Assembly: GCF_963921235.1 (NCBI RefSeq)
Contig: NC_086097.1
Location: forward strand, 70,186,001 to 70,250,000
DNA length: 64,000 bases
Source: Mobula hypostoma
Lineage: Eukaryota
Direction of reading: 5' to 3'
Position 1 is the stretch's first letter; every line of letters starts with the position of its first letter. A model generated the notes under the pieces. That model worked only from the letters and a program-made list of their open reading frames with translations, was not told the origin of the DNA and did no database searches. The translations under genes and the position numbers were made by a program. Below, one piece after another: positions 11,968 to 60,116 of the stretch.

Positions 11968-13068
11968 CTTTAAGGAAAATAGATACAACATTTAAAAAGA
12001 ATCTTCAATATCAGAATTACAAAATTTAGCTTCGTTGCAGTTCATTATTATTGCTTTTGTAGAATAGACCAAGAAATAACAAAATTTTGCTAGTAGTTTG
12101 AAACGTAATGAACAAAAAATCAGCTAACTTTATTTCCTCATGGATTTACTAGGCCAGCAAGGAAATTACAAGCTTACAGAGGATAAAACTTCATTACCAG
12201 CTAGCATTAGAAAATAAATAGAACAGAGCAGATAAAACAACTTCTAAAACTATATACTGCATTTAATATAAACATTGATTGTTTTATAAATGGATGTATA
12301 AAAATTTTAAACAACTTAGGAATCAGAGGGATAGAGTGGATTAAAGCACAGACTTTATTGGTAGTTGAGAGTATGGAATTAGCACTTCCACCATTGGGAA
12401 GCTTTAAGTTGACATAGAAATTTGTGACGGTGAAAAATTGACAAAAAGTCAAACTTAAAATATGGTTCTGTGAGAGAGAAAATGCAAAAGCTGAAAATGC
12501 AGGGCACATTCAGCAGTTTGGCAGTATCTGTGGAAAAAGAGTTACTGATTCAGGTCCAAGACTCTTCTTCCTATGTGGGAGAGAAAATAAGTTAGCTTTA
12601 AGTAGCAATGCAGGAGATGGGATGGATAAAACAAAGGGAATATCTCTTTAGGCTGAGACAAATACTCCCACGGATTTAAGATTGTTGATGAAGCAATGAA
12701 GTCTGGTAATAATGATTAAGTATGTCCATATAAGGTTTTGGACATATTATAAACATACACAATGATCAAGTCTCTTGATCACCGTGGCTTTCATTTGCTT
12801 TAGTTCTGCAACCTTTTATTGCTTTGTATTCCTCCTTTTATCATGGGAGCTAATACTAATATATTTAAGTTACCTGGTTCTTGTGAATGCATTTTTGATA
12901 TCTTCATCAGTTTTCACATAGCAATACAATTTTTCCATATTCTGCTCCAGCAAGAAAATATCAGATTGCTTCCGAAGATGACAGACACTTCTCAAAGTTA
13001 TCTAAAATTCCTTAAAATCCCAAACTGCTTCAATTATAAAAGCAAGAATATGGATATCAAGAGAATTA

Positions 13069-13614
13069 CACCCAGAGACCACTTTATTAGGTACAGGTAC
13101 CTCCCATACCTAATAAGATGGCCACTGATGTATGTTTGTGGTCATCTGCTGCTGTAGCCCATCCACTTCAAGGCTGGACAGGTGCATTTAGAGAGGCACA
13201 CCACTGTTGTAAAGCATGGTTATTTGAGTTACTGCCGCCTTCCTTAACAATATGAACCAATCTGTTCATTTTTCTATAATCTCTCTCATTAACAAGTCAT
13301 TTTGCCCATAGAACTGCCACTCAGTGGATGTATTTTTTGATTTTTGCATCATTCTCTGTAAGTTTTAGACTGCTATGTGTGAAAATCCCAAGAGATCAGC
13401 AGTTTCTGAGATACTCAAACCACCCAGTCTGGCATCATTCCAAGGTCAAAGTCTCTTGCATCACATTTCTTCGCCATTATGATGTTTGGTCTGAACAGCA
13501 ACTGAACCTCTTGACCATGTCTGCATGCTTTTATGTATAGAGATGCTGCCACATAATTGGATTTGCATTAATGAGCAGGTGAAAAGGTATACCTAATAAA
13601 GTGGCCAATGAGTG
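13069..13614. mobile_element. Tc1-type MITE
   Basis: TA-flanked; TIRs cacccagagaccactttattaggtac / atacctaataaagtggccaatgagtg; related copy at 27091. Confidence 0.8.
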
Positions 13615-13771
13615 TATATTTTGGTTATGGCATACATCATCTCCAACCTTCCAGAAATTTTGGCTCACTGAAATTCACCTACCACCAAAACAGGTCCAAG
13701 TGGATGTCATCTCCTTGGCCCTACACTCGCTCACTGGAGCATCTGGACAGCAAAGACATGTTATAATATTG

Positions 13772-13807
13772 AGTCCTGACGAAGGGTCTCGGCCTGAAAC
13801 GTCGACT
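13772..13807 (+). ncRNA. Minimal type I hammerhead ribozyme motif
   Basis: AGUC-CUGACGA-AGGgucucggCCU-GAAAC-GUC-GACU: stem I AGUC/GACU, conserved core, stem II, palindromic ACGU stem III, predicted cleavage after 13803. Confidence 0.75.
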
Positions 13808-13900
13808 GCACCTCTTCCTAGAGATGCTGCCTGGCCTGCTGCGTTCACCAGCAACTTTGATGTGTGTTGCTTGAATTTCCAGCATCTGCAGAATTCCTGT
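13772..13900 (+). mobile_element. Short Penelope-like terminal repeat insertion bearing a hammerhead motif
   Basis: 13-bp TSD tgttataatattg (13759-13771, 13901-13913); near-identical to the 3' end of the GIY-YIG element at 46863-46997. Confidence 0.85.
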
Positions 13901-13944
13901 TGTTATAATATTGTTTATTTACTACAAGTCTGGCCTTCCACACT

Positions 13945-14385
13945 ATAACTCCAAGCAAACTTACCTCTAAACTCCCTGACCTGGAACTCAACACCTTCCT
14001 TTATAACTGGATCCTTGACTTCCTGACTAACAGACCACAATCAGCAAGGCAGGGCAGCACACCTCTGCCACAATTAACCATAATGCTGGTGTCCCACGAG
14101 GCTGCATCCTCAATCCCTACTTTAGTCCTAAATATGCCCACAACTGCATGGCCAGATTATGCTCTAATTCCACGTACATGTTTGTAGATGATACCACTGC
14201 AGTGGGCTGTATCTCAAATAGCAATGAACTGGAGCACAGGGAGGAGGTAGAGAGCCTAGTAGCATGGTGCCATAACAACAACCTTTCCTTCAATGTCAGC
14301 AAAACAGAAGAGCTTAGTCACTGACTTCAGGAAAACGGTCAGTGCACATGTTCCTGTTACGTCAAGAGTGCTGAGGTTGAAAAGA
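13945..14385 (+). mobile_element. Rex1/Babar LINE fragment (continues ~21150-22110)
   Basis: Decayed [19 protein letters not shown] and FVDDTTAVG motifs; homology resumes after the nested inserts. Confidence 0.7.
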
Positions 14386-15245: not shown

Positions 15246-18200
15246 TTACATTAAATGAAAATATCGAATAAAAGGTCCCCAAATCTGTTCAAATTTAAAT
15301 GAAGAATCATAAAGATTACTTCTAATTTTCTCCAGATTCAAACATAAAATCGTCTGAGAAAACCAAAAAAAGGTAGTTGGAGCATTAAGCTCTTTCCAAT
15401 GTTGTAAAATACATCTTTTCGCCATTAAAGTAAGAAATGCAATCATTCTACGGGCTGAAGGGGAAAGATTACTAGAAATTTTAGGTAGTCCAAAGATAGC
15501 AGTAATAGGGTGAGGAGAGATATCTATATTTAATACCTTAGAAATAATATTGAAAATATCTTTCCAAAAAGTTTCCAAAGTAGGGCAAGACCAAAACATA
15601 TGAGTTAAAGAGGCTATCTGCCCCGAACATCTATCACAGAAAGGAATAATATGCGAGTAAAAACGCGCTAACTTATCTTTGGACATATGTGCTCTATGAA
15701 CCACTTTAAATTGAATTAGGGAATGTTTAGCACAAATAGAGGAAGTATTAACTAATTGTAAAATCTGCCCCCAATCATCCACAGAAATGGTAAGCCCCAA
15801 TTCCTGTTCCCAATCTACCCTAATCTTATCAAATGGAGCTTTCCTAAGTTTCATAATAATATTATAAATCATAGCCGATGCACCTTTCTGACATGGATTA
15901 AGGTTAATTATCGAATCTAAAATATATATAGGAGGAAGCATTGGAAAGGAAGAAAGTATAGTACTTAGGAAATTTCTAACTTGTAAATATCTAAAAAAAT
16001 GTATTCTTGATAAGTTATATTTATTAGATAATTGTTCAAAAGACATAAGGGAACCATCTAAAAATAAATCCAAAAACCGTAAAATACCCTTAGTCTTCCA
16101 AGTTTGAAAAGCGCGATCCGTAAAAGAGGGAGGAAAAAATATGTTACCTAAAATAGGAATCGCTAACCCGAATTGATTAAGATCAAAAAATTTTCTGAAT
16201 TGAAACCAAATGCGCAAAGCATATTTAACTATCGGGTTAGAGACCTGCTTAAGGCGTTTCGAATCAAAAGGAAGAGAGGAACCTAAAATAGAACCAAGTG
16301 TATAACCCTGAACAGATTGTAATTCCAATGCTACCCATTTAGGAATAGATAGTATGTCCCGGTCAAGTAACCAAAATTTCATATGTCGAATATTAATAGC
16401 CCAATAATAAAATCTAAAGTTAGGTAATGCTAAACCTCCATCTCTCTTAGCTTTCTGTAAATGTATTTTACCCAGTCTCGGATTCTTATTCTGCCAAATA
16501 AATGAAGAAATTTTAGAGTCAACTTTATCAAAAAAAGATTTAGGAACGAAAATTGGTAATGCCTGAAACACATATAAAAATTTTGGCAAAAAAAACATCT
16601 TAACTGCATTAATACGACCAATCAAAGTTAAATATAAGGGAAACCATTTAGATGAAAGTTGAGTAATATGGTCTATTAATGGTAAAAAGTTAGTCTTAAA
16701 TAAATCTTTATGTTTACAAGTAATTTTAATCCCAAGATATGAAAAGTAATTATTAATCAATTTAAATGGAAATTTATAATATAAGGGAAGATGTTTATTA
16801 ATCGGAAAAAGTTCACTCTTACTAAGATTTAATTTATAACCTGAGAAAAGACCAAATTGTGCTAATAACTCTAAAACAGCAGGAATGGATCTCTCAGGAT
16901 TAGAAATATATAAAAGTAAATCATCAGCATAGAGTGATAATTTATGGGACTTTAATCCCCGAGTTATCCCAGTAATATTTGAAGATTCTCGAATAGCAAT
17001 TGCAAGAGGTTCTAATGCAATATCAAATAATAGGGGACTAAGAGGACAGCCTTGTCGAGTACCACGAAAGAGAGGAAAAAAAGGTGAGTTTAAGGAGTTA
17101 GTACGAACCGAGGCTACAGGGGAGTGATATAACAGTTTAATCCAGGATATAAATTTCAAGCTAAAATTAAACATTTCAAGCACCTTAAATAAATAAGGCC
17201 ATTCTACTCTATCAAAAGCTTTCTCGGCATCTAAAGAAATAACACACTCAGGAACATTTTGTGAGGGAGTATAAACGATATTTAACAATGTACGAATATT
17301 ATAAAAAGAGTAACGACCTTTAATAAAACCCGTTTGGTCTTCCGAAATAATAGAAGGAAGTACTTTTTCTAGTCTATTTGCTAATAACTTAGAAAAAACT
17401 TTAGAATCAACATTTAATAAAGATATTGGTCTATAAGATGCACATTGAGCAGGGTCTTTATCCTTCTTTAGTATTAAAGAAATTGATGCTCTATTAAAAG
17501 ATTCCGGAAGTTTACCAAGTTTCAAAGAAGCCTCAAAAACCTTATAGAGCCAAGGAATCAATAAAGAAGCAAAACATTTATAAAATTCAACGGTAAACCC
17601 ATCAGGGCCAGGAGCTTTCCCCAGATTCATAGAAAAAATAACATTCTTAATCTCATCCATTGTAATGGAAGTATCTAATAAAGAAGACATATCCTGTGAA
17701 ATCTGAGGGAAGTCTAACTTATCTAAAAAATCATTCATATATTTAGAATCTCGAGGAGACTCTGATTGATATAAAGAAGAATAAAAATCACAAAAGGTTT
17801 GATTAATCCCCACATGATCCAATATCAATCGATCATTTTGGTTATAAATCTGATTGATTTGAGATTTAACATAATTAGATTTCAATTGATTAGCCAGCAG
17901 CTTGCCAATTTTATCACTGTGAACATAAAAATCACTTCTTGTTTTCTTTAATTGGTTTACAATCGAGGACGAGAGTAGTAAACTGTGTTCCATTTGAAGT
18001 TCAGTTCTTTGTTTGTATAGCTCCTCAGAAGGAGCCATAACATATTTCTTATCAATTTCTTTAATCTTGTCCACAATTGCCATCTCCTCCTGCTTCTGTT
18101 TCTTCCTCAAAGCAACGGAATACGAAATAATCTGACCCCGAATATAGGCTTTAAAAGTGTCCCAAAGAGTGTTAACCGAAATATCTTCTGTATGGTTAAT

Positions 18201-19022
18201 TGTAAAAAAAAGCTCAATCTGTTCATTCATAAAATTAACAAAGTCCGAGTCCTGAAGCAACAGCGAATTAAAACGCCATTGTCTATTGTTTGGTATATTG
18301 GCCATAATTTTAATAGAAAGCTTAAGTGGAGCATGATCCGAAATGGTTATAGAATCATAATCACATTTAATCACTGAAGGAATGAGACGAGAATCAATGA
18401 AAAAATAATCAATTCTTGAATAGGAATGATGAACATGTGAAAAAAAGGAAAAATCTTTTTCCTGAGGATGCAGAAAACGCCAAATGTCCGTCGACCCAGA
18501 ATCAGAAAGGAAAAAATTAATCAAATTTGCAGATTTATTAGGTAAAGTCCGTAAAGGAGCCGAACGGTCCAAAGCTGGAGATAAACAGGTATTAAGATCT
18601 CCGCCCCAAATCAATGAAAACTCGTTCAAATTCGGAAACTGATCAAACAATGATTTATAAAATTCCGGACAATCCATATTAGGAGCATAAACATTAACCA
18701 AAACTACTTTTTTATTAAATAGTAAACCACTAACCAATAAAAATCTACCATTCGGATCAGAGATAATATCCTGTTGTATAAAAGTAACTGAGGAGTCTAT
18801 AAAAATAGAGACGCCTCGAATCTTAGCATTGGAGTTCGAATGAAATTGTTGTCCCTTCCAGAATTTGAAAAAACGTAGTCTGTCCCCCCTCCGTACATGG
18901 GTCTCTTGTAAAAATAAAATTTGTGCTTTAAGTCTCCGGAACACTTTAAAAACTTTTTTCCTTTTAATAGGATGATTAAGACCATTAGTATTCCAGGAGA
19001 CAAAATTAATAATAGACTCCAT
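15246..19022 (-). CDS. L1 ORF2p (APE endonuclease, RT, CCHC)
   Basis: First ATG at 19022 (MESIINFVSWN), 1258 aa; LQETH, GGDLN, SRIDY, SDHAP; DAEKAFDRV, GTRQGCPLSP, LYADD; CDRC...HMFWSC. Confidence 0.96.
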   Translation of the reverse strand: MESIINFVSWNTNGLNHPIKRKKVFKVFRRLKAQILFLQETHVRRGDRLRFFKFWKGQQFHSNSNAKIRGVSIFIDSSVTFIQQDIISDPNGRFLLVSGLLFNKKVVLVNVYAPNMDCPEFYKSLFDQFPNLNEFSLIWGGDLNTCLSPALDRSAPLRTLPNKSANLINFFLSDSGSTDIWRFLHPQEKDFSFFSHVHHSYSRIDYFFIDSRLIPSVIKCDYDSITISDHAPLKLSIKIMANIPNNRQWRFNSLLLQDSDFVNFMNEQIELFFTINHTEDISVNTLWDTFKAYIRGQIISYSVALRKKQKQEEMAIVDKIKEIDKKYVMAPSEELYKQRTELQMEHSLLLSSSIVNQLKKTRSDFYVHSDKIGKLLANQLKSNYVKSQINQIYNQNDRLILDHVGINQTFCDFYSSLYQSESPRDSKYMNDFLDKLDFPQISQDMSSLLDTSITMDEIKNVIFSMNLGKAPGPDGFTVEFYKCFASLLIPWLYKVFEASLKLGKLPESFNRASISLILKKDKDPAQCASYRPISLLNVDSKVFSKLLANRLEKVLPSIISEDQTGFIKGRYSFYNIRTLLNIVYTPSQNVPECVISLDAEKAFDRVEWPYLFKVLEMFNFSLKFISWIKLLYHSPVASVRTNSLNSPFFPLFRGTRQGCPLSPLLFDIALEPLAIAIRESSNITGITRGLKSHKLSLYADDLLLYISNPERSIPAVLELLAQFGLFSGYKLNLSKSELFPINKHLPLYYKFPFKLINNYFSYLGIKITCKHKDLFKTNFLPLIDHITQLSSKWFPLYLTLIGRINAVKMFFLPKFLYVFQALPIFVPKSFFDKVDSKISSFIWQNKNPRLGKIHLQKAKRDGGLALPNFRFYYWAINIRHMKFWLLDRDILSIPKWVALELQSVQGYTLGSILGSSLPFDSKRLKQVSNPIVKYALRIWFQFRKFFDLNQFGLAIPILGNIFFPPSFTDRAFQTWKTKGILRFLDLFLDGSLMSFEQLSNKYNLSRIHFFRYLQVRNFLSTILSSFPMLPPIYILDSIINLNPCQKGASAMIYNIIMKLRKAPFDKIRVDWEQELGLTISVDDWGQILQLVNTSSICAKHSLIQFKVVHRAHMSKDKLARFYSHIIPFCDRCSGQIASLTHMFWSCPTLETFWKDIFNIISKVLNIDISPHPITAIFGLPKISSNLSPSARRMIAFLTLMAKRCILQHWKELNAPTTFFWFSQTILCLNLEKIRSNLYDSSFKFEQIWGPFIRYFHLM

Positions 19023-19743
19023 AAATCCTAAAGTCAACCCATAACAAGGAGGATTGACAATAGGCGCGACCCACAAACCCGGAGAGGAAACAGAACATAC
19101 AAAAGATACCGGGGAAAAGGACGCAACCAATACTTCAATAATGTATATAGCCCAAAGAGAAACAAACTAAAACGTGAAGCCCCTCCCACCACCCCCCACC
19201 CCAAGACCCCAAGGCGAAATCTAAAGCAGACCCGCCAGAAAGAAGCAAGCGCTAAAACTACCCCCATGACTTCCGGTATACGCTCCCTAAAAAAAAGGTA
19301 TAAATATGAAAAGGATCAGCTAATTGTAAAACAGTAAAAAAATAAGTAAAAAAAAGTTAGCTCAATTAAAATACACACAGAACAGAACAAAAGCCGGAAA
19401 GTATATATTAAAAAAAAACCACAATAAACCTCAAACTCATGAATAGACACAGCAACAAAAAAAATAGGATTATTAACATAAAATGATTATAAAAAGCAAA
19501 ACAGAATAAAATTTAAAAAAAAACTACAAAATTTAAGGCCGCACAGGAAATACGTAAGATGACAAAAGGGAAGTAACCACCCAGAATCCCCTGGGAAAAG
19601 AAAGAAATGACGCAGTTAAAAAGAAAGTTTAGCAGCCATATTAAGAAATCGAAAGTAAACTTTTCTGCCCAAATAGGGCACAGAAAAGTTAAAACCAACC
19701 AATTCACAGCCTCCGATCAACGGAGAAAATTAAAAAAAGGCAA

Positions 19744-20643
19744 TTAAGATGTTGAAGATGAAAGTTGATCCAGATAACTCTGGGCATCCGATAGAGAATC
19801 AAAAAAACGAAGGGCTCCATCTAACATGCGAATCCTTAGACGTGCAGGGTACAGCAGCGCTGGTCTTAAATCCATCTTATAGAATTCCGACATCACGGAT
19901 CTGTAACGGACCCGTTGGTCCCAGATTGGTTTACTGAAATCTTCCACGAATCGGAATTTAAGATCCGAAAAATCAATGAAACCTTTAGATCGAGCGAATC
20001 GAAACAGTCTCTCCTTGTCTTGAAAGTAATGAAAACGTAAGATAACATGCCTAGGTCTATCTGACCTAGACGAGTATGATGGGATTCTGTGAACACGATC
20101 CAGTAGCGGTGGTTGGTCAGGAAATACAGTAGGGAATGCATCTTTTAAAAGTTGGGAGAAATATTTCATAGGGTTGTTAGCTTCCACGGCTTCCCTGACG
20201 CCAATCATTCGTAAATTCTGCCGTCGCATTCTAGATTCCAAGTCAGAGTTTTTAAAAGTCAAAAAGTCAAGTTTCTTCTTCATTACATTAATTGTTTCTT
20301 CGACTTTCCCCATCTTAAGCTCACTTTGTTGCGCGGATTTTTGAAGATCAGATATAGCCGACTGATGTTCCGCAATACATGTTTGCATCTTATCAATTAA
20401 ATCGGCAATTTTCTGGAACTTAGTTGAGATTTCCGTATGAATCAGGTCTTTAACAAAGCCCATAATTTCTGTACGAATCATCTCCCTAACAGAGGTTGAA
20501 ATTTCCCTCTGAATTAACTCCGATATCGCTTTCAAAGTCACCGGTGATTCAGTCGGAGGGAGATCCGTAGCTTTCGGTTTAACCGGAGGTTTACCATCCT
20601 TGCCGTCTTTCCCGTTCTTAGACATAGCCGATCTCAGTATCAT
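19744..20643 (-). CDS. L1 ORF1p (coiled-coil, RRM, CTD)
   Basis: 299 aa; DLESRMRRQNLRMIGV, LDRVHR, RPRHVILRF, EDFS, LLYPARLRI motifs. Confidence 0.93.
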   Translation of the reverse strand: MILRSAMSKNGKDGKDGKPPVKPKATDLPPTESPVTLKAISELIQREISTSVREMIRTEIMGFVKDLIHTEISTKFQKIADLIDKMQTCIAEHQSAISDLQKSAQQSELKMGKVEETINVMKKKLDFLTFKNSDLESRMRRQNLRMIGVREAVEANNPMKYFSQLLKDAFPTVFPDQPPLLDRVHRIPSYSSRSDRPRHVILRFHYFQDKERLFRFARSKGFIDFSDLKFRFVEDFSKPIWDQRVRYRSVMSEFYKMDLRPALLYPARLRIRMLDGALRFFDSLSDAQSYLDQLSSSTS

Positions 20644-23600
20644 CCAATTGTCAGAGAATTCAGTTTAATTCAAAGTATTGTAAAAATTGATGCCTTAATA
20701 GTTAATTAAAGTATAGCTGACCATAGAGAGAAAAAACTCAGAGGTAATGGAGCGAGTCAAGAACGCGACTTCACTCCATGAGCGCTACCGGAAGTTCCCC
20801 TGGTTGCAGATGTTTTTGTTGCTGTTTTGTGCAACATTAACTGGGGTGGGCTGGCTCTGCAGCCTGCAGTCAGCAAACGGCACAGCGCTTGACTGGACTG
20901 GACTGAACTGAGCTGAAGCTGCACATTCCTGAACTGTTTCGTTGACTTTGTGGTTGATGTTATATGTTCTGTGGTTTTTGCTTTTTTCCCCCCCATTTGC
21001 ATGATTTGTTCTTTTTATTGAGTGTTGGGAGTTTTGTGTTTTTCTTTGAATGGGTTTCATGGTTTTCTTTATTTTATGGTTGCTGTGGGAAGATGAATTT
21101 CAGGGTTATATACAGCATGCATACTTTTATAATAAATGTACTTTGAGTTTTAAGATCTTCAAAGTGAACATCACCAACAGCCTGTCTGGTCCAAACACAT
21201 TGATGCTACAGTCAACAGAGTACCCAGCGTTTCTACTTCCACATGAAGGTAAAAAAATTTAGCATATCCCCCTTGACTTATACCGATTTTTATCAATGCA
21301 CTTTTAGAAAGCATCCCATCCAAATGCATCACATTGTTGAATTGCAATTGCTCTGCCCGAGACTATAAGAAACTGCAGTTGCAAACACAGCTCAGCACAT
21401 TATGGAAATCACCCTCTATGCCTTCTCACTGCATTGGTAAGGCAGCCCATATAATCAACCATCAACACTCAACCACTAGGCTCTTGAACTAGAGGGGATA
21501 ACTTCACTCAAATTCACTCACCTCAACACTGAAATGGTTCCACAACATATGGACTCACTTTCAAGGGCTCTACAACTTATGTTCTTGATATTTATTGCTT
21601 AATTATTTATCTATTTTTCTCTTTTTGTATTTGTACAGTCTGTTGTCTTTTGCACATTGGTTGGTTGTTCATCTTTGTTGTGTGCAGTTTTTCATTGACT
21701 CTGATGTGTTTATTTCTCGCTACTGTGAATGGCTGCAAGAAAATGGAACTCAGGATGGTATATGGTAACATATATGTACTACGATAATTTACTTTGAACC
21801 TTGAGACCCACATCTCTGGTCACTTGTCCTTCTCCTCCCTTCCATCAGGCAGACAATTCAAAAGCCTGAAAGCACACATCATCAGGCTCAAGGACAGCAA
21901 GTATTGAATGGTGCCCTAGTACAATAAAATGAACTCTTGACCTCACACTCTACCTCATAGCAGCCTTGCACCTTATTGTCTGCCTGCACTGCACATTATG
22001 TACATAACACCTTATTCTATGTTCTGTAATTGCTTTGCCTTGGACTACCTCAATGTATTGATGTAATGAAATGATCTGTTTACACATCATGCGAAGAAAA
22101 AGTTTTTCACTGTGTCAGAAAACAAACAGAAATAAAAAAGCAGTTGAATGAAAATGACATTTCTGATATTTGGCTAGCACTCAAAAATTTCTGGTAAAGA
22201 TGAATGGATTAAAAGATATAGTTAAAATACTGGCACACAAATAGAAATTGAAGAATACATCTCAATGTAAATTTATGCTGAACAGAATTGCTTTATTTAA
22301 AAAAATCTGACTGGCAATATGATAGCAAACAAAGCAAAAAATATCAATTAGCAATTTTTTTCTAAACTATGCAATACAGAAAGCTAAATTAAAAACTACG
22401 GGGAATACATACATTAGCAAATGTACATTTTAAAACTCTTATTCATAATTATCAAGGGATTGTAAAGCAGTAATTGCGGCATGCAAAGAGTTCTTTAAAG
22501 CATTTAAAATTTCTATCCAGAGCCAATAGAGATGGCTTGGACAACCTCATTCACTGAAATATTTTTCCTGCACAACCCATTTGGTAACCTTCATCAATCT
22601 CATTGATATTATATATTTCTGAGAAGTGTAAATGATGGAAAAGATTAATTATTCCCTGTACACATGGTCTGGGAGTTTAAAAAAAAACTTATTCTGTGAG
22701 TCCCAATCATTCTTACAACAATTTGGTATCTTTAAAACAGCAACAATATTTGTCATGTGCATTCATTTCATCATATATACAGTCTTGTGTAATTTATTGA
22801 TCCACTTTTCCATATTCACTGCTTCTCCCAAGTATCACCCACAAACTTAATACACTTTCTTTGTCTCTACTCCAGGTTACATGCAAGCAAGTAAAAAGCT
22901 AGTTCATCATTGGTCTTAAGAGTTACCCCTTTGATAGTTACTGTTTCTTGTTTAATCACTCCAGTTTGCACAAGGTTGTTTCCAATTTGTTGCAACTTAA
23001 CCTTTGAGATTTTATAAAATAATTTTGAAATTCCATCCAAGCAACAGTGACCAAGGCTCTGCTTTACCTCTATTATTTTAAGTCTTTAGGTGTTAAATTT
23101 GACATTATTAATGAGCAAACAAGACTGACTTCCCATTATACAATTTCTTTCAAGTCTAACCATGTTTTGGTAATCTAATTTTACTTCTGATTGGAACCAG
23201 ATTGGTGCAAAATTGAGAATTATTCACTGACGTGATTCTGAAGAACAATTGCTGCACTCTGTTCTATAGTTTGTAGAACGTCATTGCTTGCTGTGCACAA
23301 TAGAACCTGTGTTTGATTATCTATTCCAGTATTTGATATGGGCCAGATGTTGCTGCTAAAGCTGAGCTACCACACTTGCTGCTAACAAATGCAAAACATC
23401 TGTAATTATCTTTGGTAATCTTGCTGGCAAGATCAACTGGTAAAGTGCCCGGTTAGGTATTGTATCGGGGCTTTCCACAGTTTTATGTTGTAATGTGGAT
23501 GGGCCAGAATAAATCATGCCCAGAAAGTGGATGTACCACCAACTGCTTACGAAGTTTTACCAATAACTTTGTAAGCTTTCAGAAATGTCAAAGACCTTGA

Positions 23601-27059: not shown

Positions 27060-27090
27060 CTGCAAAAAACAAATTTATCTTGATGACATA

Positions 27091-27392
27091 CACTCAGTGG
27101 CCACTTTATTAGCTACACTTGGTCATTAATTCAAATATCTAATCAGCCAATCATGTGAAGACAACTCTATGCATAAAAGCATGAAGGCATGGTCAACAGG
27201 TTCAGTTGTTCACACCAAACATATGAATGGGGAAGAAATGTGATCTAAGTGACTTTAACCATGGAATGAATGTTAATGCCAGATGGGGTGGTTTGAGTTT
27301 CAGAAACTACTGATCTCGTGGGATTTTCATGCCTACGAATGATGTGAAAAACAGGAGGTACAGGAAGTACCTAATAAGGTGGTCATTGAATG
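27091..27392. mobile_element. Tc1-type MITE (same family as 13069, opposite orientation)
   Basis: TA followed by cactcagtggccactttattag; ends gtacctaataaggtggtcattgaatg; interior is the reverse complement of the 13069 copy. Confidence 0.78.
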
Positions 27393-30332: not shown

Positions 30333-33026
30333 TGAGCATGGATTTATAAAAAGGAAATGTTTGATGAATCACTTCAGTTATTTGAAATTGTAACTAAAAC
30401 ATATAGGGGGAACTATGGATACACTGTATTTGACTTTCAAAGACCTTTGATAAGGTGCAATTAAATAAAATTAGTACGTATAAGTTTGTGGTCATATACA
30501 GGCAAAGGGAAAGGATTAGCATATGACAGGTAATAGAATAAGAATACACCAGTTATTTTCAGGTTGAATAGCTGAAAGAGATGGGGTTCAGCAGGGATCA
30601 GTGCCAGGGCCCAACTGTTAATAATCAGTTTACTGATGTGAATACGGCGGCCAAATGTAATAAATCCAAACTTGTCGATGAAACACAGCAAGATCTACAA
30701 ATGTTCATACATTTGGATATTAAGAAAATCAAAAGTTATAAGTTGTGAGAAAAGTACTGGAAATACTCAGCAGGCTAGGCAGCATTTATGAAGAATTAAC
30801 ACTTCAGGCCAATGATTCTTCACCAAAGCTGAGAATATGAGAAACAGATGTGTTTTAAGTTACAGAAAGAACAAAGAGAATGTCCATAATAGGGAAGAGA
30901 ACAAGATTAACTAGGTGATACAATAAAAGTTCAAAGTAAAATGATCAAAGTGCATATACAACTTGAGATTCATTTTCTTATGGGCATACTCAGTAAATCC
31001 ATAGTAATAACAACCGTAACAGAATTAATGACAGACTGTACCAACTTGGTCGTTCAACTGGTGTGCAAAAGAAAACAAACTGTGCAAATACAAAAAGAAA
31101 GAAATAATAATAATAAATAAATAAGCAACACTGAGAACATGAGATGAAGAGTCCCTGAAATGTTATTTAGTATACAAATGAGGGGAGATCATGAGAACAG
31201 AAGACAAATTGCTGGAACAATGAGACGCAGAATAAAGCTGTTGCCAGAAATCTGAAAAAATATCTTTCAATACCTAGCAGTCAGGCGGCTTATGGGGACA
31301 GAGAAAATGAATTAAAGTTGCAGAGACATGATCTTATACCTGAACCATCAGTGCCAGTATATCTGAAAATGCTGAATTTAGTATCAACCGCAGGGCTGTT
31401 CAATGCTGAGATGGAAGATGAAAACTCTTTGAGTTTTGTTGGAAAGCTGAAGAAAGGAATCAAAGTGGAAATGGAGTGGACAATAAAAATGAATGTCAAC
31501 TAGAAGCTCGGGGTCAATCTTGCATTGCTATTGTAGATATGGGTTCCATAGTAACCATGCTGAAGTAAAAGATCGGCCATGACCATGAACTTATTAATCA
31601 GTGGAGAAGGATGAGGGACCTCATGACCTACTCCTGCTTTCTTTTTCATGTTCTTATCCTTTAAATCCACTAATGTGATTCAGTACATTTTATTTGAAAA
31701 AGGATCTAGTGTTCTAGTTATGTGTACATTTTATTTGTAATAAAATTTGGAAAAGTCAAGTACTTAATGTGTAAATAGGCAAGCAAAATTTGAAATTACA
31801 TTTGGGAACTTTAAAGAAGAGGTTCAGATTTTGCTTCGTGACTAAATACTCTGCAGCCTTTTTTAATCCTGCACATACCAAGCAGTGATGCAAACAGTCA
31901 TGATGCTCTCCACTTACATCTATATAAATTTGCTAGTCTTTGTGCAATTCATGAGGGAAACAGGATAGCACAATTCTAGAAATGCTTTCTATTGAAATTG
32001 GTTTATTGCAGAACAGACAGCTTGGAGGAGAAATCTATTACTTGCCACAAAAAAAACATGATTCATAAGAATCCATCTTTTCAGATTTGTCTTAACAGCT
32101 CTAATGAAGTCAGTTGCAAGAATACAGAATTCTCACAGAACAGAGGAACTCCAACCACTATGGACAGATCAGGCATGTGAACTTGGATAGGATGGCAAAG
32201 CCTGCAAGACACATTTTTATTGCTGCCACTGTCACTTGACAAAGTAGCCCATGAAATGCCATGTAACTTAGTGGAGAAAAACAGCTAAAAGATTTGCATC
32301 ATCTATGAATTAGAACTGAAATCCAGTTCAAACCAATGATGCCAAAAATGAGTTATTCTGGTAAAATTTTGTAAGCTTATGTCTGCAAAATTTGTCTTCA
32401 ATTTCTAATGAAGAACTATATCATAAATTGAAAAACTTGACATACTATAAACATATGGCTAATGAAAAGGAATAATTTTGTGCATTTTGTAGCAGATAAT
32501 GCCTGGAAGAGATCACTTATTTTTTTATTTGAACTAATCAGTCGAGAGTCTAAATCAACTGCATTGGGATATAAACTGTATACAGCTGCTGAATCAAATT
32601 CCTTTCCTGTGGCAAAACTATATGCCAATAAATTGAAGACCTGGTGCAAAATTCCTTACAGCTCCATTGAAAAGCTTCCTATTCTCTTGCTATGTGTGTG
32701 CATTGCTACTTTAAACTGATTAGTAGTTAGTGCTGAACGTAGGGAAGTACTTTGCTGTGATTTTGCATGCAACAGACAGTTTGACAGCAGTTAGCACCAT
32801 TTGTTTAATCAAAAGACAGAGGTTTCATCCCATAAGTTTGAGTTGGATTTGAGTTTCAATTACTTAGAACTTAAATATTTAGTCTGAACTTAAAAAAAAG
32901 TACATAGTAATCGTTGAATACATAAAACACAGAACAGGAGAGATCAACAGATTCTTGCAGAGTATTGCTCATTAGTCCAAGTCTTAGAAGTCCCTTAGTG
33001 AAGCTGTGTGAACTTCAGTAACAGTA

Positions 33027-33190
33027 GAGATTCTGCAGATGCTGGAAATCCAGAACAAAACACTCAAAATGCAGGAGGAGCTCAGCAGATCAGGCAGCAT
33101 CTATGAAAGGAATAAACAGTTGATGCTTCAAGCCAAAACCCTGATGTTGCCTGACCTGCTCAGTTCCTGAAGCATTTCTTGTGTGTTGCT
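33027..33190. mobile_element. Older Penelope-like terminal-repeat relic with inverted arms
   Basis: ctgcagatgctggaaatcc...ctcagcagatcaggcagcatc followed by its approximate complement gatgttgcctgacctgctcag; a similar relic lies at ~33605-33760. Confidence 0.6.
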
Positions 33191-35019
33191 GTTCATTTTC
33201 ACTATCAACTAACTTCAGGTTTTTCAGACCAAAATTGCTAGCCTGAGGCAAACCTCTTTTGCTGCTGGGTAAAATCACATCAGTCCAATTCTTTGCACTC
33301 ATATGAATCAGAGGTCAAAAATCCATGTTATATCATGGGAAGATGTGATAAAATGTTTAATAAATAAGGTAATGCGATATAGTACCAGAAAATGTAATGT
33401 TTTTTATGTCAATGAACTTTCTGAAGTGGCATCAAGGAGTTGCAAAAGCAATTGCAGGAGGTCCTACATTACCTTTACAAAGCAACTTGGGCTTAAGAGG
33501 AAATGCACCTTTGCAATGCTATCTGGATGTTGCAAAGAAATGGTGCAGTAGTCAACAACCAATCTGGACAACTAGTCTATCGTAGATTAGAGCCAAGCCT
33601 AGATGAAACAATCTGCAGAAGCACCTCAGAAGGCTGAGCTGCATCTTTGGAAGGAAAGGAAATGCAAACATTTTATATTCAAAACCCTGCACTTCACTGA
33701 GTTCCTCCAGAAGATTGTTTGCTGCTTTAGGTTCCAGCATCTGCAGTATCTTGTGTCTCCTAGAGGGAGTTAGTTAGTCTAAACCAGTGCAAGTCATCTC
33801 CTTAAACAAACTACCTGCAATATGTGGCTTAGCAATGTAGCACAACCTTTAAAACAGACACATATATGAACTGAGTTTTGAAGTTACAACTCTTCATCAA
33901 TGTGGCTCACAAATGAGAAGGCAAGTAATGCTGAAGCTGAGCAATCCACATAGTTTTTAAAAGGGTGAAATTCTAATTGGATTAACAGAATGAAAAAGGT
34001 GTCTTTATTCTGTGTGCACCCAAGAACAACTTCTAAGGTAGCAAAGCCACGCACTTTGGCACAGAGCTCTTCACAGACAACAGAATAAGAATATCAGTTG
34101 GCAACATTAATAGAGCTACTCTTAACTTGCAAAATCAAATTCAAAATTATATAAATTTATTTCGAGAATGCAGTCACATTTTTTAATTCAAATACTCAAG
34201 TGACAAATGCCAATGTTCAGTTCAGTGGGAACTATCAATTAATCTACAGCATTGAATAACACACGATTTATGTTTACTAGCTGTAAAAGAAAGCGCAAGT
34301 TGATTTTGGAAAATTAAATGCTTGAAATGCAATGCCCTCAAAAGGGAAAATATTATTAATGTTGGCTAGGTAAATGCATTTAAAATCTTATGTATCCTAT
34401 AGCTAATGCCTATCGTTTTTCTTCTTAATACTTCAATACTTCCAATCACAGATTTCATCGTTATTTCATTCAAAATAAAGTTCTGGAATAGTTAAGAGTG
34501 TAAATATAACTAGGCAGAAGCAGACAAAGAATACATAGCCATGAAATTCAGAGATGCCTAATGGGAATCATTAGTTAAGTTGTAATGACAGCCTCTATAC
34601 CTTCTTACATTGGTTAGCCATTTGTACAAGTTTCTGACTACGTATGTGGCAAAATCTGTATCTATAGATTCTCTTTCATGTAGATCCCAAAACACTTCCC
34701 AGCCAATGAGTTAACTGTCAATTTCATTCAACTGGAAAATGTTACCCAATCTTTGCAAAATAATATCCCAGAATCAACTGTAACAGAAAAAAAATTGGAC
34801 AGGTGAAGCCAATGGCATTGATTGAGGGATAAATATTGAGCAGAACACCATGGGAGCTCCTGTAATCTTGCTTGAAAAGTGCAGAAGGATATTACATCCA
34901 TCAAAATGACAAACTTAGTTAATATCTTATTTAAAAGATTATCACCCATAATGCAACATTATCTAAGCAAATTTAAAGTGCCAGGTTAGATAATGTGTTG
35001 GAGGTTAAGTAGAATAGAT

Positions 35020-35150
35020 AAACAAGAGAAAATCTGCAGATGCTGGAAATCCAAGCAAGACAGACAAAATACTGGAGGAACTCAGGAGGCCAGGCAGCAT
35101 CTATGGAAGAGAGTATAGTCAACGTACCAGACCAAGATTCTTCACCAGGA
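35020..35150 (-). mobile_element. Older Penelope-like terminal-repeat copy with decayed hammerhead
   Basis: Diverged reverse complement of 13772-13900; the core reads cuggugaa and the GAAAC segment is eroded. Confidence 0.7.
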
Positions 35151-41889: not shown

Positions 41890-43275
41890 AAAACTGGAAT
41901 GGTTTTATTGTTGTCTCATATACCAATGTACAGTGAAATGCTTGTCTTGCATACTGGTCAGATAGATCAATTTGTTAAACAGTGCACAACAACAATGCAA
42001 AATAAAGTGCACCGGCTACAGAGAAAGTGCAGAGCAGGAAGGCAATACGGTGTAAGATAATAACAAAGTAGATTGTGAGGTTAAAGTACTAAGGACCTAT
42101 TCAATAGTCTAGTAACAGTGAGGTAGAAGTTGTCTTTGAGCCTGGTGTAATGTGTTTACCAGCTTTTATATCTACTGCTAGATGGGAGAGTGGAGAAGAG
42201 ACAATGTCCTGGAAAGGTTTGTGTCTTGGATTAAGCTGGCTGTTTTATTGAGACAGTGAGAAGTGTAGACAGAGTCCACAGAGAGGAGGCTGGAGATAGT
42301 GATGTGCTGAGTTGTATCCACAGTTCTCTGCAACCTCTTGTGGTCACTAGGGTCATGGGCAGATCAGGTGCCCATACCAAGCTGTAACGCATCCGGATGG
42401 GGTGCTTTCTACGTTACATCAATAAAAATTGGTAAGGGTTGACAGGGACATGCCAAATTTCTTTAGCCTCATGAGGAAGCAGTGGCATTGGTGAGCATTT
42501 CTGGCCATGGCTATTGGTAATGTTTACTCCTGGAAACTTGATACTCTCAACCCCCTTAACCTCAGCACTATTGATGAACATAGCAGCATGTGCACCACCC
42601 CCTTCATGAAGTAAATAACCAGCTCTTTTTGATTGCTAGCATCTTTGTTGTGTTCAGTTTTTCAATCATTCTATTGCATTTCTTTTTACATACTGTGAAT
42701 GCCTGCAAGAAAATGAATTTCAGGGTAGTATATGGTTACACATGCACTTTGATAATAAATTTACTTTGAACTTTTGAGGGAAAGGTTGTTGTCATAACAC
42801 CATGTTACTAAACTCTCTATCTACTCATGTATTCTAACACATCATTATTTGAGGTACAGCCCGCTGTAGTGGTATCATCTACAAACATGTAAATGAAGTT
42901 AAAGGAGAATCTGGCCACGCAGTCATGAGAGTACAGGTAATAAGGTAATGGACTGAGGACAAAACCTTGTGGAGCAACAGCATTTAGAATAAGTGTGTCA
43001 GAAATGCTGCTGCCTATCCTTACTGACTGTGGTCTGTTTATCATAAAATCAAGGATCCAGTTGCAGAGGGAGATGCTGACTCCAAGGTCTCAGTCTGGTG
43101 ATGAGATTGCTTGGAATTATACTATTGAAGGTGGAACTGTAGTCAATGAACAATAGTCTAACATAGGTGTATTTGGTGGTAGGCAAATTGCAGTAGGGCA
43201 AACTTGCCCGAGAAGTTGGAGTTAATATACGCCATGCCCAGCCTCTTGAAGCACTTCATGATGGTGGATGGCAGA
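41890..43275 (-). mobile_element. Rex1/Babar LINE fragment
   Basis: NRPQSVRIG...[10 protein letters not shown]...FVDDTT (ORF 42817..43044); contains an inserted plus-strand Rex-type tail ~42640-42775. Confidence 0.8.
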
Positions 43276-44164: not shown

Positions 44165-45228
44165 GAGGAGCTATCATGAACTCCCAAAGCCCCTGATGAT
44201 CTTATGATTTCAGTCTCTGAAGCTGACATGTGAGCAGCCTTTAGGACGGTGAACCTACAGAAAGCAATGGCCCAGACGGGTACTTGGCCAAGTATTAAAA
44301 ACCTGTGCCAATCAATAGGCTGGAGTGTTCACTGATATCTTTAAACACATGCTTTGGCAGTCTGAGGTACCCACCTGCTTCAAGCAGCATCAATTATACT
44401 TGTTCCCAAGAAAAACATGGCAACCTGTCTCAATGATGATTGTCCTGTTGTACTTACATCCGCAGTGATAATGTGTTTTAAGAGGTTGGTGATGAAACAT
44501 ATCAACTCCTGCCTGAGAAGCGACTTGGATCTGCTCCAATTTCCCTACCAGTGCAGCAGATACTATTTCAATGGCTCTTCACTCAAACCTGGAACATCTG
44601 GATCGCAAAGATGCATACATCAGGATGCAACACACATAAAAGTTGCTGGTGAACGCAGCAGGCCAGGCAGCACCTCTGGGAAGAGGTACAGTCGACGTTT
44701 CAGGCCAAGACCCTTCGTCAGGATGCTCTTTATTGACTACACTCAATACTACCATTCCCTTAAAACTAATCAATAAGCTTCAAGACTTTGGCCTCAATAC
44801 AACGCTGTGCAATTGGATCCTCACTTGCAGACCCCAGTCAGTTCAGACTGGCAACAACATGTCCTCTATGATCTCCATCGGCACAGATGCACCACAAGGC
44901 TGTGTACTTAGCCCCCTGCTCTACTTGTTTTATACATACGACTGTGTGGCTAAGCACAGCTCCAATGCCATATTTAAGTCTGCTGACATCATCACTGTCG
45001 TAGGCCGAATCAAAAGTGGTGATGAATCAGCATACAGGAGAGAACAACTTCTTACTCAATGTCAGCAAGTCCAAGGAGCTGATTATTGACTTCAAGAGAA
45101 GGAAACCAGAGGTCCATGAGCCAGTCCTCATTGGGGAAATTAGAGGTGGAGAGTCTCAGCAACTTTAAATTCCTCAGTGTTATCTTTCTGGAAGACCTGT
45201 CCTGGGCCCAGCACCCAAGTGCAATTCT
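44165..45228 (+). mobile_element. Rex1/Babar LINE fragment
   Basis: [45 protein letters not shown] motifs. Confidence 0.85.
44629..44717 (-). mobile_element. Short Penelope-like hammerhead-repeat insertion inside Rex1
   Basis: Flanked by tcaggatgc (44620-44628, 44718-44726); removing it restores DAYIRMLFIDY. Confidence 0.85.
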
Positions 45229-45748
45229 GATCTTGCCATCGATATCAATATCTAGCAAGTCAACGTAAAAGATATACAAATTATGCATTTTACAGTCATT
45301 CTATTTTTAACTATAGATGATCAGTTTCTCAGGACTTTGAGAAGCTATGCAGACTAGCTTAATGCATGATAAGGACTACCCATCCACCAGAAGTGCTTCT
45401 TCCAGCCATAACAAGGCCTGCCTTGTCCACCACAATCAATCTGCATTTGTCACTTTCCCAATTTATCACAACTCTCACTTGTCTCACGTCCAACACAAAC
45501 ATCTTTACCAAACTGACCACAGCTGTCAATCATAGGGATCATCGACATATGAGAGAGGAACTTCTTCAGAAGGTTCTAAGTGCTTGAAATTCTTTGTCCC
45601 ACAAGGCTGCATATCCAAGAATAGTCAAAGTGGAGATCAGTAGACGTCTAGGCCCTAGAAATGGGGCAAAGCTGTAAAATGTAAAAGCTCATACATCAAA
45701 GTTGCTGGTAAACGCAGCAGGCCAAGCAGCATCTGTAGGAAGAGGTGC

Positions 45749-45784
45749 GGTCGACATTTCAGGCCGAGACCCTTCGTCAGGACT
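45749..45784 (-). ncRNA. Minimal hammerhead ribozyme motif (sense to SCFD1 pre-mRNA)
   Basis: Minus strand reads AGUC CUGACGA AGGGUCUCGGCCU GAAAU GUC GACC. Confidence 0.6.
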
Positions 45785-46862
45785 AACTGAAGGAAGAGTG
45801 AGTAAGGGACTTGAAAGTTGGAGGGGGAGGGGGAGATCCAAAATGATAGGAGAAGACAGGAGGGGGAGGGATAGAGCCGAGAGCTGGACAGGTGATAGGC
45901 AAAAGGGGATACGAGAGGATCATGGGACAGGAGGTCCGGGAAGAAAGATGGGGGGGGGGGGTGACCCAGAGGATGGGCAAGAGGTATATTCAGAGGGACA
46001 GAGGGAGAAAAAGGAGAGTGAGAGAAAGAATGTGTGCATAAAAATGAGTAACAGATGGGGTACGAGGGGGAGGTGGGGCCTTAGCGGAAGTTAGAGAAGT
46101 CGATGTTCATGCCATCAGGTTGGAGGCTACCCAGACGGAATATAAGGTGTTGTTCCTCCAACCTGAGTGTGGCTTCATCTTTACAGTAGAGGAGGCCGTG
46201 GATAGACATGTCAGAATGGGAATGGGATGTGGAATTAAAATGTGTGGCCACTGGGAGATCCTGCTTTCTCTGGCGGACAGAGCGTAGATGTTCAGCAAAG
46301 CGGTCTCCCAGTCTGCGTCGGGTCTCACCAATATATAAAAGGCCACATCGGGAGCATCTACGCTCTGTCCGCCAGTGAAAGAAGGGTCTCCCAGTGGCCA
46401 CACATTTTAATTCCACATCCCATTCCCATTCTGACATGTCTATCCACGGCCTCCTCTACTGTAAAGATGAAGCCACACTCAGGTTGGAGGAACAACACCT
46501 TATATTCCGTCTGGGTAGCCTCCAACCTGATGGCATGAACATTGACTTCTCTAACTTCCGCTAAGACCCCACCTCCCCGTCGTACCCCATCTGTTACTCA
46601 TTTTTATGCACACATTCTTTCTCTCACTCTCCTTTTTCTCCCTCTGTCCCTCTGAATACACCTCTTGCCCATCCTCTGGGTCACCACCCCCCTCCTTGTC
46701 TTTCTTCCCGGACCTCCTGTCCCATGATCCTCTCATATCCCCTTTTGCCTATCACCTGTCCAGCTCTCGGCTCTATCCCTCCCCCTCCTGTCTTCTCCTA
46801 TCATTTTGGATCTCCCCCTCCCCCTCCAACTTTCAAATCCCTTACTCACTCTTCCTTCAGTT

Positions 46863-46898
46863 AGTCCTGACGAAGGGTCTCGGCCTGAAATGTCGACT
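46863..46898 (+). ncRNA. Minimal hammerhead ribozyme motif
   Basis: AGUC CUGACGA AGGGUCUCGGCCU GAAAU GUC GACU. Confidence 0.65.
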
Positions 46899-47479
46899 GC
46901 ACCTCTTCCTACAGATGCTGCTTGGCCTGCTGCGTTCACCAGCAACTTTGATGTATGTTGCTTGAATTTCCAGCATCTGTAGAATTCCTGTTGTTTGAAA
47001 TGTAAAAGCTCAACCATGTTCTAAGCAATGAGAGATCAGGCTCGATTCTACATATGGCCATGCTTGAAACTATTTATTATATAAACGTATAACAATAATA
47101 GCACAGAAACAGGCCATCTCGGCCCTTCTAGTCCGTGCCAAATTATTACTCTCACTATTTAATTATGCTTCGGCCAGTGCAGTAGTCCTTATTTAAGTAA
47201 GTACTGAAATCAATTCTAGACAGTTAGTTATTTCATCAATATCAGTTTTAAAACCCTAATATATCTTAAACATGTACTGTAATTCAAATTTCTAATTTGC
47301 AATACTATATAAAAGACTTACAATGGCAAAAAAAAATTGCAATTAAGGAACTGGCCTTTCAGTCTGAGGAATGCTTCAAAGTGTCATTCAACGCATACAG
47401 TCATGCTGAATAAAATAAATTTGCTGTAGCATCACATCACCATCTACTGGCAATTTTAAGAGGAACAAACTCCTACTCC

Positions 47480-58300: not shown

Positions 58301-58494
58301 TTTTAAGGATTCTGCAACTCATGTTCTCGATATTTATTCCTTATTTATTATTATTGTTATTTTTGTGTTTGCAGTTTGTCGTCTTTTGTACATTGTTTGT
58401 CTCTGTCATGTGCAGTTTTTCATTGATTCTATCACGTATCATATTTACTGTGAATGCCTGTAACAAATGAATCTCAGGGTAGGCTATGGTGACA
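55350..58494 (+). mobile_element. Nested Rex1/Babar fragments with an internal CR1 3' fragment (~55801-56300)
   Basis: Outer Rex breaks at ~55590 and resumes ~57930; inner Rex has IAGDFNQA, MKCFESLV, KFADDTT and a ctgatt tail; CR1 has SRTRGHSLK...FFSQRVVNLWNALP. Confidence 0.78.
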
Positions 58495-58496
58495 TA

Positions 58497-60116
58497 CAGT
58501 AATATGCAAAAGTTTGAGCAGCCCTGGTCAAAATTTCTGTTACTGTGAATAGCTAAGTGAGTAAAAGATGAACTGATTTCCAAAAAGCATAAAGTTAAAG
58601 ATGACACATTTCTTTAATATTTTAAGTAAGAAAACTTTTTTATTTTCATCTTTTACAGTTTCAAAATAACAGTAAAGGAAAAGGGCACGAAGCAGAAGTT
58701 TGGGCACCCTGCATGGTCAGACTTAGTAACACCCCCTTTGGCAAGTATCACAGCTTGTAAACGCTTTCTATAGCCAGCTAAGAGTCTTTCAACTCTTGTT
58801 TGGGGGATTTTCGCCCATTCTTCCTTGCAAAAGTCTTCTAGTTCTTGAGATTCTTAGGCCGTCTTGCATGCACAGCTCTTTTGAGGTCTATCCACAGATT
58901 CTCGATGATGTTTAGGTCAGGGGACTGTGAGGGCCATGGCAAAACCTTCAGCTTGCGCCTCTTGAGGTAGTCCATTGTGGAGTTTGAGGTGTGTTTGGGT
59001 TCATTATCCTGTTGTAGAAGCCATCCTCTCTTCATCTTCAGCTTTTTTACAGACAATGTGATGTGTGCTTTCAGAATTTGCTGGTATTAAATTGAATTCA
59101 TTCTTCCCTCTACCAGGAAATGTTCCCCGTGCCACTGGCTGCAACATAAGCCCAAAGCATGATCGATCCACCCCTGTGCTTAAAAGATCAGAGGGGTTCT
59201 TTTCATGAAATTCTGCACCCTTTTTTCTCCAAACATACCTTTGCTCACTGCGGTCAACAGGTTCTATTCAAAAGGTTCAAAGGAACATCTCAGCAAGCCT
59301 GATGCATTTTGGAAACAAGTCCTGTGGACTGAAGAAGTTAAAATAGAACTTTTTGGCTGCAATGAGCAAAGGTATGTTTGGAGAAAAAAAGGGTGCAGAA
59401 TTTCATGAAAAGAACACCTCTCCAACTGTTAAGCAAGGGGGTGGATTAATCATGCTTTGGGCTTGTGTTGCAGCCAGTGGCACAGGGAACATTTCCTGGT
59501 AGAAGGAAGAATGAATTCAATTAAATACCAGAAATTCTGAAAGCAAACATCACACTGTCTGTAAAAAAGCTGAAGATGAAGAGAGAATGGCTTCTACAAC
59601 AGGATAATGATCCTAAACACACCTCAAAATGACACAATGGACTACCTCAAGAGGCACAAGCTGAAGGTTTTGCCATGGCCCTCACAGTCCCCTGACCTAA
59701 ACATCATCGAGGATCTGTGGTTAGACCTCAAAAGAGCAGTGCATGCAAGACGGCCTAAGAATCTCAAGAACTAGAAGACTTTTGCAAGGAAGAATGGGCG
59801 AAAATCCCCCAAACAAGAGTTGAAAGACTCTTAGCTGGCTATAGAAAGCGTTTACAAGCTGTGATACTTGCCAAAGGGGGTGTTACTAAGTACTGACCAT
59901 GCAGGGTGCCCAAACTTCTGCTTCGTGCCCTTTTCCTTTACTGTTATTTTGAAACTGTAAAAGATGGAAATAAAAAAAAACTTCTTGCTTAAAATATTAA
60001 AGAAATGTGTCACCTTTAACTTTATGTCTTTTGGAAATCAGTTCATCTTTTACTCACTTAGCTAATCACAGTAACAGAAATCTTGACTGGGGTGCTCAAA
60101 CTTTTGCATGCCACTG
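58497..60116. mobile_element. Palindromic Tc1 derivative (two inverted 3' halves)
   Basis: TA-CAGT...ACTG-TA; ~770-bp arms each with QQDN.PKH and WPSQSPDLNIIE; central spacer encodes FWKQVLWTEE. Confidence 0.92.

Follow-up and report, generated by a model that had tools for sequence, protein, structure and literature searches.

The 129-bp insert at 13772-13900 of the window (the whole stretch of 64,000 nucleotides of the Mobula hypostoma genome that was analysed) is very probably the terminus of a Penelope-like element (PLE). It is collinear with the end of a PLE insertion elsewhere in the window, is flanked by a target-site duplication (TSD), and belongs to a set of copies with two alternative 3' ends about 35 bases apart; elements of this kind have already been described, and the insert is one of them. 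The explanation that fits best, and which is held with rather better than even confidence, is a solo terminal repeat made by the element's own reverse transcriptase (RT) and endonuclease through internal priming on uncut RNA, with copying that ends preferentially at the 5' edge of a hammerhead ribozyme carried as a passenger. What is odd is the place where such short copies tend to start, which is the first base of the hammerhead rather than the site of cleavage.

The insert and its hammerhead motif

The borders of the insert are secure, because its flanks rejoin as a decayed LINE reverse transcriptase and because an empty paralogue of the host LINE (43110-43230, minus strand) contains the TSD word once, with 11 of 13 bases alike. 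Direct repeats of at least 13 bp arose by chance in 2 of 3000 random pairs within the window, and the TSD-flanked insert of the first-pass annotation therefore stands. Since the first four bases of the right TSD are also the next four bases of the element, the true length is 129-133 bp, extending to 13904 if the overlap is counted. The insert has kept five CpG dinucleotides, compared with 0-1 in the old relics, and is thus judged to be young. The host relic is taken here to be Rex1/L2-like, and one of its relatives contains a frame (44640-45086) with a match to RVT_1 (E 0.0013). Directly upstream of the host relic lies one copy (13380-13617) of a 240-bp repeat that is 77% alike to a second copy at 27088-27329. 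The DNA of the window is repeat-rich: it also contains an apparently intact L1-like element (15246-20664, minus strand) with an ORF1 frame of 306 aa (Transposase_22) and an ORF2 frame of 1306 aa (endonuclease, RT, zf-RVT); a 1.6-kb fold-back element (58494-60119) that matches its reverse complement at 91% identity, has ends flanked by TA and contains transposase-like sequence, presumably a Tc1-type derivative; and a dispersed repeat family whose members (21010-21997, 30925-31160, 42024-42775, 58213-58504) are 65-76% alike.

The first 36 bases of the insert contain every part of a complete hammerhead, as had been noted at first reading: stem I (13772-75/13804-07, AGUC/GACU), the core CUGACGA (13776-82) followed by one extra A, a stem II of 4 bp capped by a tetraloop (13784-87/13792-95), GAAA (13796-99) leading into the palindrome ACGU (13799-802), and a GUC site with a predicted cut after 13803. 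Stem I is short and stem III palindromic and rudimentary; the earlier description of a minimal motif of the dimer type is supported. The core pattern occurs four times in the window, versus 0.01 expected and none in 100 shuffles, and the full descriptor including stems has two matches in the window versus two over 300 shuffled windows. The search with hammerhead models that the first-pass annotation had recommended did not recover the motif, the Rfam models giving no match at E<=1 in the whole window or at E<=10 in 191 bases. Among nine copies in the window, 74% of cells are paired and four changes are two-sided, a level of covariation that 36 of 500 shuffles reached as well. In public contigs the C at 46891 that keeps the palindrome accounts for 79-95% of depth, and the pair that is G10.1-U11.1 here is the canonical G10.1-C11.1 in 19-74% of depth.

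By the nearest-neighbour model, which leaves out the tertiary energy of the core, the hammerhead monomer is predicted to prefer an inactive hairpin (-10.0 versus -6.0 kcal/mol for the active form) and a hypothetical tandem dimer is predicted to misfold (-83.7 versus -62.3 kcal/mol for the active form), while the unit as a whole folds no better than shuffles (z -0.69). The preference for the inactive hairpin fits reports that minimal PLE hammerheads are weakly active and depend on protein (PMC4209133, PMC11167929). Cleavage of hammerheads as dimers is covered in a review (PMC6765202), and the predicted motif in the ray is probably of this dimer type and protein-assisted.

Outside the window, a 31-base hammerhead pattern had no loci in viral or prokaryote contigs, and alignment of the PLE protein detected no relatives in viral or prokaryote contigs. 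A 21-base pattern had 30 metagenome and 12 prokaryote loci, which were rejected as chance, all 42 matching over 19-25 bases only. Some copies in public contigs have small local duplications, visible as a short go-back joint over the 5' half of the hammerhead (46852-46890), from 46888 to 46852 (depth 84 in run X1) or from 46890 to 46859 (depth 30 in run X5).

The Penelope-like element and its copies

Each arm of the head-to-head insertion at 45692-46997 consists of the end of a GIY-YIG open reading frame, a spacer of about 300 bases that is 78% pyrimidine, and the hammerhead; the right arm has a tail and the left arm does not. The GIY-YIG fragment has 96% identity to an RT-GIY-YIG protein of Mobula hypostoma and 69-90% to Hypanus proteins. 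The RT itself is absent from the window, and RT and GIY-YIG occur together in two homologues (P0006, P0033). A close ray homologue (P0001, 96% identical to the window fragment) has before its endonuclease the linker CKRNKCYTC (CX4CxxC), which lies outside the window. An RT, a CX2-5CxxC linker and a GIY-YIG domain make up the layout of the Neptune/Nematis clade (PMC8557442), and the close ray homologues have, to judge from their protein sequences, a layout of the Neptune/Nematis type. The GIY-YIG linkage behind the RT, the optional tail and the TSDs (13, 9, 15, 10, 10 and 7 bp among the PLE copies of the window) are those of EN+ Penelope-like elements. The mobilisation by a Penelope RT that had been proposed for the insert is supported. 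In run X5 a contig of the flank (46998-47100) has its first base at the right-hand TSD of this two-armed copy; the organism concerned, organism B, may lack the insertion.

Table 1. Coordinates of the insert, its host, the two-armed Penelope insertion and related copies in the window
Feature	Position	Strand	Details
Left TSD, 13 bp, TGTTATAATATTG	13759-13771	+	Exact match to right TSD
Right TSD, 13 bp, TGTTATAATATTG	13901-13913	+	Exact match to left TSD
Insert: solo pseudo-LTR (terminal repeat) of a PLE, with tail	13772-13900	+	96% identity to 46863-46991
Type I minimal hammerhead	13772-13807	+	Core pattern, stem descriptor; architecture as in PMC4209133
Optional tail of ~35 bases, unit positions ~98-133	13869-13904	+	Absent from 44629-44717 copy and 45692 arm
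Host: decayed LINE reverse-transcriptase relic	13564-14333	+	Homology to 42774-43240, 44380-45150, 56656-57396
Solo copy without tail	44629-44717	-	TSD TCAGGATGC at 44620-28 and 44718-26
Older solo copy with tail	35022-35148	-	81% identity; 10-bp TSD at 35012-21 and 35149-58
Decayed solo copy without tail	12484-12578	-	10-bp TSD at 12474-83 and 12579-88
Decayed solo copy without tail	30753-30837	-	7-bp TSD, weak: 358/3000 by chance
Decayed short fold-back pair	33020-33190	.	Tailed arm (~12-135) and inverted tail-less arm (~52-100)
Decayed short fold-back pair	33600-33760	.	Minus-strand arm without tail, plus-strand arm with tail
Possible very old relic	63545-63640	+	No clean TSD; E 0.26-0.61 with single query
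Head-to-head two-armed Penelope insertion	45692-46997	.	15-bp TSD at 45677-91 and 46998-47012
C-terminal GIY-YIG endonuclease fragment	46084-46359	-	Pfam GIY-YIG E 0.009; hammerhead in same sense
Second copy of GIY-YIG fragment	46352-46561	+	

Of the related copies listed at first reading, those at 44627-44723, in both arms of 45692-46997, at 35027-35150 and at 33030-33142 are firm (E 7e-40 to 1e-12), and those at 33605-33756 (nhmmer E 0.04) and 30755 (nhmmer E 0.03) are weaker. The sites at 12480 (E 0.36) and 63590 (E 0.61), which had been offered as possible relics, are weak alone; the former has a 10-bp TSD, and repeats of at least 10 bp arose by chance in 23 of 3000 random pairs. A profile HMM that included old relics returned circular E-values for those relics, which were left out of the support. 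In all, the window contains nine insertion events, comprising five TSD-flanked solo copies, one relic without a clean TSD and three two-armed insertions.

The two young solo copies (13772 and 44629) are on opposite strands with different TSDs and ends, and are therefore independent. Within one LINE family they nevertheless hit the same RT codons, at positions that overlap (13759-13771, 44620-44628); two of the four host-LINE copies that span this site are hit, with a chance of roughly 0.002 when calculated post hoc. The shared LINE codons may reflect a target preference of the PLE.

The high abundance claimed for the repeat is evident in public contigs, those matching 46345-47100 numbering 106,831 in run X1, 108,814 in run X5, 13,874 in run X9 and 56,516 in run X14, that is, more than 100,000 in each of two DNA runs. 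In terms of summed contig depth, which is not the same as copy number, the 100 bases just before the hammerhead reach 0.61-0.64 of the value for the hammerhead region in X1 and X5, or 0.88 of the lowest bin of that region, and the GIY-YIG end reaches 0.91-0.94 of the hammerhead-region value in X1 and X5 and 2.7 times that value in X14. The upstream Penelope sequence being also very abundant, the short copies are only one class, and the solo copies are probably a real class that makes up between a minority and about half. Run X9, guessed to be RNA, is deeper behind the cut site than in front of it, in contigs that cannot show the ends or levels of RNA, and this pattern was left out of the argument.

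Ends of the copies and their possible origin

At the 3' side, copies end either at unit position 95-99, counted from the first base of the hammerhead (44629-44717, at 97-99, and the left arm of 45692-46997), or at 129-135 (13772, 35022-35148 and the right arm). The 129 bp of the first-pass annotation is accordingly no fixed length of the unit, other copies ending about 35 bases earlier. Two of three matches among Mobula predicted proteins and gene models that include the unit diverge after position ~99, and a tailed arm is paired with a tail-less arm in all three two-armed insertions of the window. An optional PLE tail of 30-40 bp, often on one arm, has been described (PMC8557442, PMC3846280), and in PAc, a Poseidon element of Anolis carolinensis, the tail corresponds to the stretch separating two internal sites of RT initiation (PMC11167929). 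At the 3' junctions of the 13772 insert, the 44629-44717 copy and the left arm, the start of the TSD matches the element over 4, 2 and 2 bases, with single-site chances of 0.006, 0.04 and 0.07, respectively.

At the 5' side, the five TSD-flanked solo copies start at +1 (13772), +3 to +9 (44629-44717), +3 to +5 (35022-35148), about -6 to +1 (12484-12578) and about -7 to -13 (30753-30837), that is, within about -13 to +9 of the first base of the hammerhead, so that the 5' ends in the window look non-random, as had been predicted. None of the nine insertions starts at +33, the first base past the cut. A unit defined by cleavage is ruled out, the start being 32 bases upstream of the cut, and a stall of the RT at the 3' foot of the hairpin would place starts near +37, where none was seen. 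The presence of an intact ribozyme inside the copies implies that the template RNA was not cut by it; for the Anolis PLE, the in vitro reaction uses mainly uncut RNA as its substrate, and reads ending at the cut are not reported in the available text of PMC11167929.

Ordinary random 5' truncation of PLE copies, in which a start at stem I is a coincidence helped by microhomology, is an unlikely explanation of this boundary. It is consistent with the upstream depth, which falls gradually as in ordinary truncation and is still high at the GIY-YIG end, with the microhomologies of six and two bases at the 5' junctions of the 44629-44717 and 35022-35148 copies, and with reports that most PLE insertions are 5'-truncated (bioRxiv 10.64898/2026.07.22.740005, PMC8557442). 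However, the same 5' boundary recurs in copies of the window that differ in 3' end and in age, the 13772 insert has no 5' microhomology, and no solo copy of the window starts in the 517 bases that precede the hammerhead, a stretch present in the two long arms only. Crude exponential-truncation models give P values of 0.003-0.0002 for four of eight starts within 16 bases, from a sample that is small and post hoc, in which the real spread of starts is about 22 bases and two of the five solo starts come from decayed copies, one of them with a 7-bp TSD only. In public contigs, 46863 is the best-supported 5' loose end among those listed in all three DNA-type runs (460, 509 and 356 contigs in X1, X5 and X14), with a pyrimidine tract as its consensus (agreement 0.40-0.42); these loose ends are no count of solo copies, because older subfamilies with a divergent upstream spacer contribute to them.

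A discrete 5' boundary and high abundance could also characterize an independent non-autonomous family, SINE-like or retrozyme-like, with its own masters and RNA and a borrowed PLE RT. At unit position 50 the 13772 and 44629-44717 copies both have G, in contrast to the C of the two arms of 45692-46997, and vertebrate PLE-derived retrozyme monomers, including one from a cartilaginous fish, have been reported (bioRxiv 10.64898/2026.07.22.740005). Such a family is nevertheless improbable: the copies have no sequence of their own, their ends do not fit a circle closed from cut to cut, their length is not fixed, and the ribozyme is predicted to misfold both as a monomer and as a tandem dimer. No head-to-tail tandem hammerhead array occurs in the window, ARAGORN predicts no tRNA genes that could supply a tRNA head, no Rfam model matches, and the sequence is wholly PLE-derived. 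The discrete, separate SINE- or retrozyme-like unit of the first-pass annotation is thus not upheld, given two 3' ends and a start that cleavage did not define. Still less probable is that the two pseudo-LTRs of a complete insertion recombined and left a single repeat, as in a solo LTR. The same product would be expected, with one repeat between TSDs and a start at the 5' end of the RNA, and recombination has been invoked for solo pseudo-LTRs of Adineta (PMC3846280), but those so explained are without TSDs; in the ray only about 100-130 bases of homology would be available, and the solo copies are frequent and not all old.

In the favoured explanation by internal priming on uncut RNA, the GIY-YIG endonuclease would nick AT-rich DNA, and the RT would prime at either of two sites that lie downstream of the hammerhead, with a primer-template match of 2-4 bases, and copy the uncut RNA through the intact ribozyme, three steps that are modelled on the Anolis PLE (PMC11167929, in part); copying would then end preferentially at the 5' edge of the ribozyme, a step proposed here from the ray copies. 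The hammerhead most likely rides along as a passenger and does not define the unit. The 5' edge is, with a little less than even probability, the 5' end of the RNA at the start site of an internal promoter, reached by run-off; a stop of the RT at the boundary between hairpin and pyrimidine tract is somewhat less probable, and a merely fortuitous edge at the start of the hammerhead is less probable than either. In favour of an RNA start, the A of an initiator-like word, YYANWYY, falls at +1, also in the older-subfamily context implied by the contigs, and Penelope of Drosophila virilis has an internal promoter (PMC2377424). Against it, the word is frequent, at 1.3% per base and with 7 occurrences in the surrounding 340 bases, and the start site in D. 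virilis precedes the end of the intron, at which the hammerhead begins, by about 120 bases (PMC2377424, PMC4209133).

The end of the spacer could also be read as a splice acceptor. A branch-point-like word, a pyrimidine tract and two AG (at -2 and +2) lie directly before the hammerhead (46840-46864), one of the Mobula gene models (P0037) runs into the unit where the hammerhead starts, a hint of exonisation, and the intron of D. virilis Penelope ends at helix I (PMC4209133). This reading is a weak lead, because copying of a spliced RNA would run on into the upstream exon.

If starts pile up at the first base of the hammerhead rather than at the cut, the genome records the copying of uncut RNA together with either an RNA start or an RT stop. 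A bolder proposal, held only tentatively, is that this base is the 5' end of the RNA and that internal priming at the upstream repeat yields discrete mini-insertions of 95-135 bp, each a promoter plus a ribozyme, in high copy and in several ray subfamilies, possibly with a target preference. If true, the mini-insertions would be the seed of PLE-derived retrozymes and genomic proof that the ribozyme is uncut during transposition. The role of PLE hammerheads has been called unclear (PMC8557442), and the abundance of the ray PLE family would make it testable from one assembly and a capped-RNA library.

Comparison with known hammerhead-bearing elements

The literature search listed no paper devoted to this PLE of rays or to copies that start at stem I, although subscription papers, Repbase/Dfam and the supplements of the 2026 preprint (bioRxiv 10.64898/2026.07.22.740005) may describe it. 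Among the closest relatives are the minimal type I hammerheads of metazoan PLE pseudo-LTRs (PMC4209133). They resemble the ray motif in their short stem I, in an additional base that separates positions 9 and 10.1, in a rudimentary stem III formed by a palindrome and in their location in the terminal repeat, but have a canonical pair in place of the G10.1-U11.1 of the ray element. Most of them, like those found here, are dispersed singly, and they are attributed to truncation of PLEs; the available text and supplement of that paper contain no shark or ray element and no discussion of starts at stem I.

PAc of Anolis (PMC11167929) has the same two 3' ends about 35 bases apart, the same uncut RNA template and priming of both target strands, and its distal 3' end lies 111-118 bases past the start of stem II, compared with about 120 here. 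It belongs to a different clade, the ray homologues having a Zn-finger linker; its initiation in vitro is homology-free whereas the ray junctions have a primer-template match of 2-4 bases; and no preferred 5' boundary is reported for it in the text available.

The non-LTR retrozymes of animals (PMC7229834, bioRxiv 10.64898/2026.07.22.740005) are likewise short and non-coding, with a type I hammerhead and TSDs of more than 4 bp, and they too derive from PLE terminal repeats and exist as monomers (bioRxiv 10.64898/2026.07.22.740005). They differ in that retrozymes are defined as tandem units of 150-450 bp that give circular RNA (PMC7229834, bioRxiv 10.64898/2026.07.22.740005), in contrast to the single or head-to-head copies of 90-135 bp in the ray, and in that their hammerhead is canonical, whereas that of the ray copies is minimal.

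Penelope elements of Adineta vaga (PMC3846280) show the same solo repeats, the same inverted arms within one TSD and the same tail on one arm. Several of the A. vaga solo pseudo-LTRs are without TSDs, whereas the ray solo copies have TSDs of 7-13 bp and occur about every 7 kb in the window.
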